From: an uncultured Desulfurococcales archaeon
GTDB lineage: Archaea; Thermoproteota; Thermoprotei_A; Sulfolobales; WANQ01
Reading direction: 5' to 3'
Assembly (NCBI GenBank): GCA_964415135.1
Contig: CAYPZO010000007.1
Span: 1 to 27,007, forward strand
Length of the DNA: 27,007 bases
This document shows, in pieces, positions 2,163 through 11,325 of this stretch. Each line of letters begins with the position of its first letter. The first letter of the stretch is position 1. The notes beneath the pieces were generated by a model. It ran no database searches. It saw only the letters and a program-made list of their open reading frames with translations, and was not told the DNA's origin. The translations under genes were made by a program, and so were the position numbers.

Positions 2163-3131
2163 GTGATAATAGCATCAGCTCCCGCTAAGACAATACTTTT
2201 TGGCGAACACTTTGTCGTTAAAGGTTGTCCAGCCATAGCAATAGCATTAAACGTAAGGTCAAACGTGAAGGTGAGTGAACACGGTGATTTGAGCATTAAG
2301 GTTAAATCCTTAAACCTAGGAGAGGAAATGATCGTAGACCTAAACGGTAAACCAGTTAAGCTTAGTCCTAACTTAACTCCCTATACCAAGATCTTTGAAA
2401 TGCTAGCTAACTATTGTAATCTTAAGCAAGCCTACATCGAAATTAAGTCAGATATACCAATAGCAGCAGGACTTGGTTCTTCAGCCTCCATAGCTGTTGC
2501 TCTTACAGCAGCATACTCTAGATACCTAGGTTTAAGTCTGAACTTAGATGAAATATCTAGGATAGCTTATGAATCTGAGAAAATAGTGCATGGGAAACCC
2601 AGCGGTATCGATAATAGTATAGCAACTTATGGAGGAGGCATAGTATTTGAGAAGGGTAATATAAGGAGAATTAATATTGATAAGCTTAGTGAAGCATTCA
2701 TTATAATAGCTAATACTGGTGTTGAGCGGTCAACAAGAGATGCTGTTCTTAAAGTGCTTAGACTATATGATAAGTATGAGTCGATATTAATGCATGTTTA
2801 CGAAGCTTCACGAAACCTCGTTAATGAGGCTATAAAGCACATCGAGGAAGGTAATCTAAGGGAACTAGGAGAACTTATGAATATTAACCATGGACTATTA
2901 TCAGCTATCGGGGTTTCAATGCTTGAACTAGAGGAGTTGGTATATATTGCTAGGAAGGCAGGAGCACTGGGATCTAAGATTACTGGTGCAGGTTTAGGTG
3001 GATGCATAATAGCCTTATCTACAAAAGATAGTGTTGAGAAAGTAGAGAAAGCTCTAAAAGCGAAGGCAAAATGGGTATTAAAGGCGTCATTATCAATGGA
3101 TGGTGTTAGAGTTATGGAGAAGGAACATTAA
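2163..3131 (+). CDS. mvk: Mevalonate kinase (GHMP family)
   Basis: PAKTILFGEH, PIAAGLGSSAS, GKPSGID and KITGAGLGGC motifs; GTG start 7 nt after GGTGA. Confidence 0.93.
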   Translation: MIIASAPAKTILFGEHFVVKGCPAIAIALNVRSNVKVSEHGDLSIKVKSLNLGEEMIVDLNGKPVKLSPNLTPYTKIFEMLANYCNLKQAYIEIKSDIPIAAGLGSSASIAVALTAAYSRYLGLSLNLDEISRIAYESEKIVHGKPSGIDNSIATYGGGIVFEKGNIRRINIDKLSEAFIIIANTGVERSTRDAVLKVLRLYDKYESILMHVYEASRNLVNEAIKHIEEGNLRELGELMNINHGLLSAIGVSMLELEELVYIARKAGALGSKITGAGLGGCIIALSTKDSVEKVEKALKAKAKWVLKASLSMDGVRVMEKEH

Positions 3132-8280: not shown

Positions 8281-8348
8281 TGCTTATTAACCTCTAATAT
8301 TATTTTTAGACTTCAGTAGAGCTTAATAAAGATGAAAGGTGCCACATA

Positions 8349-8771
8349 TTGATAAGTAAACTACTAGAACTAATTAGAAAGGAGCTAGATAACATAGTAT
8401 TAAGTAACTGCTACTACATTTGTAAAGAAACTAGCATTGAAGAAGTAAAGTCAGAAATAAACTCAGCATTTAAGGCTACCCAAGGTGAAGGAAAAGAAAT
8501 AGTAGAATTAAGTCCATGCTCTTCATGCATTATAAAAGAGCTTGTATCTTACCTAAATACAAAAACATACATAGCATTATCACCAAGCGGCTCAACAATA
8601 GAATACTATGACCTCAAATCAGTAATAATTGAAATACAGGGAGAGGAAAACCCCATAGCACTAATTATACCAAAGGAATTAATGAACGAGAGACTAAACG
8701 AATTAAGAATGCAAGCAATGATAACTATAGATGATGAAGAAAATATAAAGAAAATACTTGATATAGATTAA
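8349..8771 (+). CDS. Hypothetical protein (140 aa) with CxxxC and CxxC
   Basis: TTG start 7 nt after AAGGTG; coding-like composition; family not recognised. Confidence 0.7.
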   Translation: MISKLLELIRKELDNIVLSNCYYICKETSIEEVKSEINSAFKATQGEGKEIVELSPCSSCIIKELVSYLNTKTYIALSPSGSTIEYYDLKSVIIEIQGEENPIALIIPKELMNERLNELRMQAMITIDDEENIKKILDID

Positions 8772-8812
8772 CTACTAGTACTAGACTTAAAATTAGGTAA
8801 AGGTCAGCAAAA

Positions 8813-9766
8813 TTGGAGGTCTCGGATGAAATATCTTTACCTCTGTCAATAGAACTCTTAGGTCCATTACGTGTACTTCCTCATGTTCCATCATTAAATG
8901 CAGTAGTAAACTCTCCAGTTAAGGTAAAGTACTCTGCATATCTAAAGAATGCTAGATTAGTAAAAGCAAGGAGTATTAAAGACATCTCAGAGTATGATAA
9001 AATACTAGCATCTATAGAATTTAACAAACTCAGCATAAGTAATAAAAACATCATCATAGCGGATGACGAGTTACTAGAAAACATAACCAAAACACTAGCT
9101 CTCTTAAAAATGTTTCCTGAACTGAGAAACCTAAGGTCAATAATTTACCTCTATCTAGTACTTAACAGGTATAAGAGAATTGATGAAGTAAATGCTAAGT
9201 CCCTAATATCATCCATAATAGGTGGACTACAAGTCCTAAACTTAAACCCCATAGCAAAGGTTAAGCTATTACCCCACTATAATCCATACATTATAATAAG
9301 TATATTAAGTCAAGAGTTGTCTCATGAAAGAAGATGTGTAAGATCAGAAAACCTAGCGGTTATTGATAAGCTGGTAAATGTTGCCTATTTAATGTTTGAG
9401 GAAGGAATAATTAATTACACTTATCTCAAAAAGAACCTAGGATTGATAATAAAAGACTTAAACTCCTTCAATGACTGTAGAGAATTAATCTTCTACGTAC
9501 TTAGTAAACTTATTAAACATAATGCTGAAAGCCTAGAGCTCAACATAGTTAATGAACTAAGCGATGTGATAGATCATATTAATAGCTTAACTTATGGTAC
9601 TAGAATTTCATTTACTATTAACAGTACTCCATGCTTAATAGCCTTAACCCTAAATGAAGATTATGCCAAGAAGATTTTGAGGATTCTAAATAAATATGGG
9701 TTAAGAAGTTCATGGATTTCAGGTATTTTGGTGCATTACTGGACTAATGACTTCTTTTCAATTTAG
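8813..9766 (+). CDS. Degenerate GHMP-kinase-fold protein (pseudo-mevalonate-kinase-like, 317 aa)
   Basis: Colinear similarity to the window's Mvk at the N-terminus, the glycine-loop position and the C-terminus, with catalytic residues replaced (see findings). Confidence 0.6.
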   Translation: MEVSDEISLPLSIELLGPLRVLPHVPSLNAVVNSPVKVKYSAYLKNARLVKARSIKDISEYDKILASIEFNKLSISNKNIIIADDELLENITKTLALLKMFPELRNLRSIIYLYLVLNRYKRIDEVNAKSLISSIIGGLQVLNLNPIAKVKLLPHYNPYIIISILSQELSHERRCVRSENLAVIDKLVNVAYLMFEEGIINYTYLKKNLGLIIKDLNSFNDCRELIFYVLSKLIKHNAESLELNIVNELSDVIDHINSLTYGTRISFTINSTPCLIALTLNEDYAKKILRILNKYGLRSSWISGILVHYWTNDFFSI

Positions 9767-10160
9767 GTCTAAACTTTAACGCGTAAGCTATGGGTCCGTA
9801 ACTTCCTTGATCATGTACTCTCCTTAAAACTGCTTCTACCTCCATTCCAACCTTAACTTCCTCAGGATATACGTCCGTTAGCGAAGCTAGTACTTTTACC
9901 CCATTAGTTAATTCAACTATACCTACTATTAATGGAGCGTACTCTCTAAATCCGTGTGGAGGATCATGTAATACGGCATATGTGATTAATATTCCTTCAC
10001 GAGGTAAAGGTACTTGTTCAAGATCTCTTGAGCCGCACTTGCTACAGGCAGGTCTTGGTGGATAAAGTACTGCTCCACACTTCTTGCATTTCACTCCCAT
10101 AAGCATGTAGTGTGCTTTCTTTTCACGCCATATACGTGCAGGACTTATGACCTTAACCAT
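9744..10160 (-). CDS. DUF35-family Zn-ribbon/OB-fold thiolase partner protein
   Basis: CxxC-x10-CxxC, then OB-fold with PxIVGIVELxxG and VxVGMEVEAVLR, ending FRP; 4 nt downstream of the thiolase. Confidence 0.92.
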   Translation of the reverse strand: MVKVISPARIWREKKAHYMLMGVKCKKCGAVLYPPRPACSKCGSRDLEQVPLPREGILITYAVLHDPPHGFREYAPLIVGIVELTNGVKVLASLTDVYPEEVKVGMEVEAVLRRVHDQGSYGPIAYALKFRPKLKRSH

Positions 10161-10164
10161 GTTT

Positions 10165-11325
10165 TCACCTCTTGAGTATTACGACTGATATAAATGTACC
10201 AGCTCCTCCAATGCTTTGAGCTAAACCAACCTCGGCTCCATCAACTTTTATTCCAGGGAAATCTCCTCTAAGTTGCATGGCTATCTCAGCAATCTGGTAA
10301 ACTCCAGTAGCTCCTACGGGATGGCCACGAGCCTTTAAACCACCACTAGGATTGACGGTTGGTTTATCTCCGGGTCTAAACGCGTCCTCAGCTAGTAGTT
10401 TAGCTGCCTTACCCTTTTCAGCAAACCCTAGGTCCTCTAAGTCAAGTACTCCAAGTATACTAAATGCATCGTGAACTTCAACTACATCAATATTTGAGGG
10501 CTCTAATTTAGCCATTTTATAGGCGTCCTTAGATGCTAGGACTGTAGCTATTAGCATATCAAGTCTATCTCTAGATGCAATGTATATGTCGTCTGTAGCA
10601 GCTCCTACACCAGCAACAAGTATCGGGGTATCAGTTAGTTTCTTCGCTACATCCTCCGACGCTAGAACTAGAGCCGATGCTCCATCACTTATAGGACTTG
10701 CATCTAATAGTCTTAGAGGATATGCTATTACTCTTGACTTATTAACGTATTCTCTCGTTACCTTAAACCTTAACTGAGCGTAAGGATTCATTGAGGCGTT
10801 CTCATGCATTAATACAGCCCATTCACTCATTTCATCTCGAGTTACACCATACTTATCCATGTAGTACTTCATGAATAATGCGTTTAAGCTGGTAAAGCTT
10901 AAGCCATAGAATGCTTCATATTCTGCTTCAGCTGCTTTAGCTAAAGCCCAAGTAGTATCTTGGGTGCGGGCATCAGTTAACTTCTCAACACCGCCAACCA
11001 TAACCACATCATAGAGGCCTGAAGCTACAAGAGCATAACCAGTAAGAAATGCAGCACCACCACTACCACAAGCAGCTTCAGCTTTCCAAGCAGGTATCTT
11101 ACCCAAACCACAATAGTATGCTAGATAAGCTCCAAGATTATCCTGGTCTTGAAGTGAACTACTGGTCTCATTACCTACAACAAGTGCTTGAACCTTAACG
11201 TTACCTGCATCCTCAATAGCCTTCCACGCAGCTTCAGCAAATAAGTCCTTTAACCCCTTATCAAAGTGCCTACCAACTTTAGTAAAACCTATACCAACTA
11301 TATAGACCTTCCTCAACTCAAACAC
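10165..11325 (-). CDS. Acetyl-CoA C-acetyltransferase (archaeal thiolase)
   Basis: EAACGSG (nucleophile Cys), DGASA, EVHDAF, NPSGGL, GHPVGATG; GTG start. Confidence 0.93.
   Translation of the reverse strand: MFELRKVYIVGIGFTKVGRHFDKGLKDLFAEAAWKAIEDAGNVKVQALVVGNETSSSLQDQDNLGAYLAYYCGLGKIPAWKAEAACGSGGAAFLTGYALVASGLYDVVMVGGVEKLTDARTQDTTWALAKAAEAEYEAFYGLSFTSLNALFMKYYMDKYGVTRDEMSEWAVLMHENASMNPYAQLRFKVTREYVNKSRVIAYPLRLLDASPISDGASALVLASEDVAKKLTDTPILVAGVGAATDDIYIASRDRLDMLIATVLASKDAYKMAKLEPSNIDVVEVHDAFSILGVLDLEDLGFAEKGKAAKLLAEDAFRPGDKPTVNPSGGLKARGHPVGATGVYQIAEIAMQLRGDFPGIKVDGAEVGLAQSIGGAGTFISVVILKR

Follow-up and report, generated by a model that had tools for sequence, protein, structure and literature searches.

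A genus-restricted archaeal gene beside a DUF35/thiolase pair encodes a protein with a predicted GHMP fold and without kinase motifs

Results

Gene organization around P0001

The stretch of DNA analysed here, referred to as the window, is 27,007 nt in length, has 37% GC and is a contig of an archaeal MAG of 1.95 Mb. The gene under study occupies positions 8813-9766 of the plus strand and encodes P0001, a protein of 317 aa with a predicted GHMP fold and without kinase motifs. Its annotated start codon is TTG, as is that of its orthologue in the related genome G001. The 3' end of the P0001 ORF overlaps a convergent DUF35 gene (9744-10160, minus strand) by 23 nt (9744-9766), and an equivalent overlap with DUF35, of 26 nt, is found for the orthologue in G001. 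No other ORF of at least 80 aa overlaps positions 8813-9766 on either strand. The DUF35 gene is followed by a thiolase gene (10165-11325, minus strand), the pair spanning 9744-11325, and since no second DUF35 gene was detected in this genome, the two are probably the mevalonate-pathway pair. A gene for mevalonate kinase (Mvk) is located at 2163-3131 on the plus strand, 5.7 kb from the P0001 gene. Its product (322 aa) has all invariant residues of an active kinase and matches TIGR00549 with 270 bits as well as PF00288 and PF08544, showing that it is a bona fide mevalonate kinase. The ORF position, the DUF35 overlap and the mvk distance given in a preliminary description of this DNA all agree with these data.

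On the upstream side, orf140 (8349-8771, plus strand) precedes the P0001 gene with a gap of 41 nt, and the two genes are possible co-transcription partners. The orf140 product, an unrelated, family-wide four-Cys protein of unknown fold, is 140 aa long and family-restricted, having about 20 relatives in which four Cys residues (C21, C25, C57 and C60) are invariant. Its AlphaFold2 (AF2) model is confident, with a pLDDT of 92 and a pTM of 0.86. No fold match to the model was obtained in the PDB (best Foldseek E 0.19), and one unnamed cluster was found in AFDB (TM 0.64); judged from the model, the protein may represent a new small Cys-containing fold. It shares 35% identity with the orf140 products of the sister genera and is thus far more diverged than DUF35 next door (58-70%). 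Note also that a perfect GGAGGT lies within the first codons of the P0001 ORF (window 8815-8852), and that an out-of-frame ATG at 8826, 5 nt after the GGAGGT, opens an 8-codon frame (MKYLYLCQ*).

Conservation and selection

The 317-aa ORF at 8813-9766 is a real and selectively maintained gene. A six-frame search of 40 relatives recovered a single orthologue, encoded by G001, the only other species of the genus; it is 44-45% identical to P0001 and its frame is open. Synteny with G001 is complete, comprising mvk, LeuRS, a gene of 207-236 aa, IF-2B, orf140, the P0001 orthologue, DUF35, thiolase and an M48 peptidase gene. Between the two species, pN of the P0001 gene was 0.37 and pS was 0.80, with synonymous sites saturated. 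The dN value of 0.52 was 2-6 times those of ten neighbouring genes, and P0001 is the fastest-evolving gene of the neighbourhood, with 44% identity against 62-86% for its neighbours. Two independent ENA contigs from the same species showed 3 non-synonymous and 6-7 synonymous substitutions relative to the window, corresponding to a pN/pS of ~0.13, which is similar to that of the neighbouring genes. Furthermore, contigs carrying the gene without indels were present in four additional hydrothermal-vent/sediment metagenomes, and the variants listed there (12 synonymous and 11 non-synonymous) gave a pN/pS of ~0.26 when corrected for site numbers. With a within-species pN/pS of about 0.13-0.26, the gene is under purifying selection. 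Thus the earlier claim that P0001 has been kept intact is supported by the open frame in both species, by a pN far below pS and by the lack of indels in the four metagenomes, and the same comparisons indicate that its evolution is not neutral. GC3 and codon usage of the gene are typical of the genome; only its total GC is low, which is due to the amino-acid composition.

The vent runs X2-X5, examined over window positions 8300-9800, contained short contigs of ~88-92% identity beside contigs of at least 99% identity. Several vent metagenomes thus harbour, in addition, a more divergent strain or a close species that carries the gene too. Among the sequencing runs listed for the locus, none was an RNA run.

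Phylogenetic distribution

A word-indexed search of 5.8 billion clusters matched P0001 to its own 99% cluster alone, and an exhaustive phmmer search of 1.84 billion protein representatives returned only its own cluster and the 45% orthologue. When a two-sequence profile was run against 351 genomes of the class, the family was found in 2 of the 351 genomes and in 1 of 106 genera, with nothing more. No match was obtained by tblastn against phage and plasmid collections, and no flanking repeats suggestive of a mobile element were seen around the gene. P0001 is an orphan confined to one genus of hydrothermal-vent archaea, in which it occurs in two species.

In four genomes of two sister genera, LeuRS, IF-2B, orf140, DUF35 and thiolase are kept and the P0001 slot is empty, orf140 abutting or overlapping DUF35 directly in all four. 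This arrangement, which has no outgroup, means that the gene was either gained in its own genus or lost from the sister genera. The last codons of P0001 (W-T-N-D..., window 9740-9766) resemble the end of a sister-genus orf140 (L013:7690-7705; TGGNCTAAYGA, W-A-N-E*), a hint that the additional ~1 kb may have entered orf140 inside its former 3' end; the DNA match covers only 10 of 12 nt and may be due to chance.

Sequence comparison with Mvk and GHMP families

P0001 has no match in Pfam (at E<=0.1) or NCBIfam. Specifically, it stays below the cut-off of PF00288 (GHMP_kinases_N, 22.3 bits) and is also missed by the six-frame family search of the genome, it does not match PF08544 (GHMP_kinases_C, cut-off 21 bits), and it has no NCBIfam match to the mevalonate kinase equivalog TIGR00549/NF003036, the catalytic residues being replaced under a colinear alignment. 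A PDB sequence search with the P0001 profile yielded nothing relevant. BLASTP against the Mvk of the window gave E=0.3 with non-colinear fragments. An Mvk HMM of 33 sequences scored P0001 at -0.8 bits, a value equalled or exceeded by 41 of 355 shuffles, and P0001 ranked 402nd of the 2687 ORFs of its own genome. The hhalign probability for P0001 against Mvk was 3%, and the global mode returned nothing. When its hydropathy was cross-correlated with that of the Mvk family, no colinear peak appeared; one unexplained peak lay at offset +85 (r 0.235) and was discounted because the ESM Atlas alignments described below span residues 1-311 against targets of 292-367 aa. In a search of all genome ORFs with the A1 HMM, GHMP paralogues did not come out at the top. 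An ad hoc regular expression for motif I was discarded for lack of specificity, its 13 matches among 2687 N-termini being mostly Rossmann loops.

Two segments of P0001 exceeded chance. The N-terminal block (P0001 6-39 against Mvk 3-36) scored better on the Mvk position matrix than 525 of 527 decoys, which were real proteins of similar length from the same genome, the test being post hoc. This result holds for both orthologues at the same position, and Pro, Gly and Pro in the P0001 N-terminus are spaced exactly as in Mvk (7 and 9 residues). In addition, a single local match was found by hhalign between P0001 270-296 and Mvk 277-302, which is colinear and covers the end of motif III together with the next strand and helix; its score of 24.3 was above those of all 100 column shuffles (mean 15.5, maximum 23.05). 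The block designated as the ATP loop did not by itself exceed chance (rank 396 of 527). The preliminary description had aligned P0001 with Mvk colinearly; this alignment is above chance in the N-terminal and C-terminal blocks, is not so in the ATP loop block, and goes undetected in ordinary whole-length statistics. Its proposal that P0001 is an Mvk paralogue is made plausible, short of demonstrated, by the Mvk-like N-terminal block.

Predicted fold

The ESM Atlas contains a model of the exact P0001 sequence (pTM 0.73, pLDDT 0.67). Structural neighbours of the whole model are GHMP kinase clusters, with TM scores of 0.61-0.67 over 254-273 residues; individual matches had a TM of 0.67 over 268 residues, 0.64 over 266 residues and 0.61 over 254 residues of a 292-aa target. 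The top neighbour is a cluster named "mevalonate kinase family", and a cluster having GHMP_C only matches P0001 residues 112-307. When residues 1-175 were used alone, GHMP_N families accounted for 98 of 100 feature matches and for all 10 structural rows (TM 0.56-0.62). ESMFold2 gave a pLDDT of 68-70 for the P0001 chain. AlphaFold2 on the two-sequence alignment reached a pLDDT of 36 and was unusable, so the fold rests on ESM-type models; for the G001 orthologue there was no Atlas model and no usable feature match. We regard the two-domain GHMP fold (N plus C domain) predicted for P0001 as very probable, because three independent, weaker lines, namely the Atlas model, the N-terminal block and the hhalign match at motif III, agree with each other. 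The preliminary description had anticipated GHMP N and C domains, and the full-length Atlas match (TM 0.67) accords with this at the level of prediction.

Lost kinase motifs and conserved blocks

P0001 contains 8 Gly residues in total, with one GG (137-138) and neither GxG nor GxxG, so that the phosphate loop of motif II and the loop of motif III are impossible anywhere in the protein. Under colinear placement, K9 of Mvk corresponds to Ser12 of P0001 (Ala in the orthologue), E15-H16 to Pro-Leu, G103-L-G105-S to N-L-R-S, the SGxD base region to NLNPIA, and GAGLGG to FTINSTP. The "G-S-K-I-T" of Mvk survives as YGTRIS, in which Gly, Lys/Arg and Ser/Thr are kept. The motif II pattern PxxxGLGSSA is absent, with PELRNLRS at the colinear position, and so is the K-x-[ST]-G-[AS]-G-x-G-G loop of motif III, YGTRISFTINSTP retaining Gly, Arg and Ser alone. 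Thus the reported loss of the catalytic Lys, GEH, both Gly-rich loops and SGxD is correct under the colinear alignment, and for the Gly loops it holds independently of any alignment. Nor do Gly loops occur at shifted positions, which speaks against the alternative of an active divergent kinase with displaced catalytic residues. Judged from its sequence, P0001 very probably does not act as an ATP-dependent kinase.

The two orthologues share 53-68% identity in six blocks and 12-22% in the linkers, a weak statistic as it comes from two sequences. The block at the position of motif I (residues 7-40; 8831-8932, plus strand; 68% identity) keeps the P..IxLxG..P skeleton. The block at the position of motif II (residues 99-112; 9107-9148, plus strand; 57%) includes LRNLRS, with two Arg and no Gly. 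The base-helix block, with ISSxIGGL, NPIA and KLLPHxNPYI (residues 131-161; 9203-9295, plus strand; 68%), has no Asp. In the degenerate motif III (residues 259-275; 9587-9637, plus strand; 53%), YGTRIS is present and the following GAGxGG is replaced by FTINSTP, and two further blocks are found at residues 186-211 (65%) and 296-317 (64%). These six blocks would fall at motif I, motif II, the base helix, the substrate-side loop, motif III and the last strand of GHMP kinases, where the motif II site was taken from full-length colinear fold matches and the base position from colinearity, not from an inspected structural alignment. In GHMP proteins, these six elements line the inter-domain cleft.

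Other GHMP-related loci in the genome

The genome also encodes a P-loop-less Mvk homologue of 263 aa (G000:C3:35158-35946, minus strand, equal to L031:2147-2938, minus strand) directly upstream of the IPK gene. IPK (L031:1405-2172) and IDI2 (L031:252-1388) adjoin it in an isoprenoid operon. This homologue matches the Mvk profile with an hhalign probability of 94.5% (E 7.7e-8), and 43 of the 81 genomes from the order carry it. P0001 was compared with this family and rejected as a member, given its HMM rank of 650 of 2687 (-0.9 bits), an hhalign probability of 0.7% and its location on another contig away from IPK.

Another ORF, of 274 aa (G000:C168, L022:844-1668, plus strand), has a weak GHMP_C match (E 0.025) and YGSRYSW at the place of motif III, and by its sequence may be another degenerate GHMP-like protein. 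Homology of P0001 to this ORF was also considered and rejected. A 490-aa ORF (G000:C90, L021:1438-2910, minus strand) combines a threonine synthase (27-342) with the C-terminal part of a homoserine kinase, residues 376-487 matching the thrB model at positions 189-300. The PF00288 search of the genome revealed no thrB N domain elsewhere, and the ORF could be a fusion, or else a frameshift or an assembly join.

Discussion

We consider that P0001 is probably a genus-specific GHMP-fold protein that is no longer a kinase, derived from a duplicated Mvk-type gene and serving an accessory, cleft-binding or regulatory function. It would most likely have originated by duplication of an Mvk-type GHMP gene followed by very fast divergence. 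With the glycine-rich phosphate loops, the catalytic Lys and the Asp base lost, the protein would not act as an ATP-dependent kinase. The cleft would still be constrained and used, and we infer that it still binds something because the conserved blocks sit at cleft-lining positions and the linkers are nearly free to change. The cleft would most likely accommodate a small anionic ligand or a partner, and an anionic group might be held by Arg105 and Arg108 of LRNLRS. By analogy with XOL-1 or Gal3p, P0001 may have a binding or regulatory role instead of being an enzyme of the known pathway, and it would be an accessory protein, not a core component of mevalonate or lipid synthesis. In a bolder form of this proposal, which we hold to be rather improbable, a recent Mvk duplicate has exchanged its ATP loop for an Arg-lined anion site and now senses a metabolite or has a regulatory role specific to the genus. 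Its targets might be the neighbouring mevalonate-pathway genes, or it might act jointly with the four-Cys orf140 protein, making it an archaeal counterpart of XOL-1/Gal3p and a second independent pseudo-GHMP lineage.

The fold itself could be mistaken. P0001 would then be an orphan of another fold, and the ESM prediction and the short sequence matches would be artefacts, which would agree with the failure of AF2, the uniformly negative standard homology tests, the missing Atlas match of the orthologue and the lack of a colinear peak in hydropathy cross-correlation. We nevertheless find this unlikely, since the model has full-length TM scores of 0.6-0.67 to many independent GHMP clusters, the result is repeated for the N-terminal half, and two independent colinear sequence traces occur at the expected motif positions. 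P0001 could also be an active enzyme of a non-canonical type, with a GHMP cleft in which Arg105 and Arg108 replace the glycine loop and a phosphorylated or carboxylated substrate is handled without ATP or with another phosphate donor. The conserved polar residues at cleft positions (LRNLRS, KLLPHxNPY, YTYLK, YGTRIS and WTND) and the purifying selection on the blocks that hold them would fit such an enzyme. However, a dN of 0.52 (2-6 times that of the neighbours) and a range of one genus are atypical for a metabolic enzyme, and we know of no GHMP-fold enzyme without a phosphate loop; we judge this possibility highly improbable. Hardly credible is the idea that P0001 is a decaying, functionless remnant of a duplicated kinase gene. 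Being the fastest-evolving gene of its neighbourhood (44% identity against 62-86%) would suit decay, and yet two species with saturated synonymous sites both keep an open frame, pS greatly exceeds pN, no indels occur in four populations, and the conservation is blocky.

The preliminary description had placed P0001 within isoprenoid lipid synthesis, as a dead Mvk paralogue that serves the mevalonate/isoprenoid-lipid machinery in a scaffolding role, in allosteric sensing or as a non-catalytic subunit (Mvk, thiolase/DUF35/HMG-CoA synthase). It is true that mvk is 5.7 kb away, that P0001 abuts the only DUF35/thiolase pair of the genome, and that both the N-terminal block and the top Atlas neighbour, a "mevalonate kinase family" cluster, are Mvk-like. 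However, the gene is convergent to DUF35/thiolase and not co-oriented in an operon with them, the HMG-CoA synthase gene is on another contig, and the same neighbourhood exists without P0001 in the four genomes of the two sister genera, the family being limited to 2 of 351 genomes and 1 of 106 genera of the class. If P0001 originated by local duplication, the proximity of mvk would be explained without a functional link. A complex prediction of Mvk with P0001 scored 0.00 and counts neither way. Membership in the isoprenoid machinery is thus not supported, and we rate this role as quite unlikely.

Provided that the predicted fold of our preferred explanation, a repurposed GHMP-fold non-kinase, is true, the genome would encode three Mvk-type proteins, namely one active kinase and two copies that degenerated independently and were maintained. 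GHMP kinases would then be a recurrent source of non-catalytic proteins in Thermoproteota, and P0001 would be a young, fast-evolving case for the repurposing of an enzyme fold. The practical reach of this finding is limited because P0001 is known from two vent species only.

Comparison with known systems

P0001 resembles Mvk in its length, its predicted colinear two-domain fold and the N-terminal P..IxLxG..P skeleton with identical spacing, and its motif III still opens with G-x-(K/R)-I-(S/T) and is followed by the same beta-alpha unit. However, it differs in having no family HMM match, no catalytic Lys, no Glu-His, no phosphate loop (GLGSS replaced by NLRS), no SGxD base and no GAGxGG, and on these sequence features it cannot be classified as a mevalonate kinase. 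The IPK-adjacent homologue is closer in that both proteins lack kinase motifs, reside in the same genome, have low GC and evolve fast (the homologue shares 51% identity within the genus). On the other hand, that family is demonstrably Mvk-homologous, widespread and located in an isoprenoid operon, whereas P0001 occurs in one genus only and outside such an operon. P0001 would therefore stand beside it as another case, independent of the first and either much younger or faster in its evolution.

Among GHMP-fold proteins of the regulator type, yeast Gal3p retains binding of ATP and galactose; ATP binding by P0001 is unlikely, to judge from the missing Gly loops. XOL-1 of Caenorhabditis, a close precedent, is characterized in PMC11349215, citing Luz et al. 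2003, as a sequence orphan of one genus that evolves fast, has a GHMP fold and shows no detectable binding of ATP. P0001 is likewise a genus-restricted sequence orphan that evolves fast between congeners and is presumably non-catalytic. Unlike XOL-1, it is archaeal and its fold is only predicted; the two are unrelated in sequence, and the sex-determination role of XOL-1 has no counterpart. With its fold taken as predicted, P0001 would represent a lineage-specific case of a known class, the non-catalytic GHMP-fold proteins.
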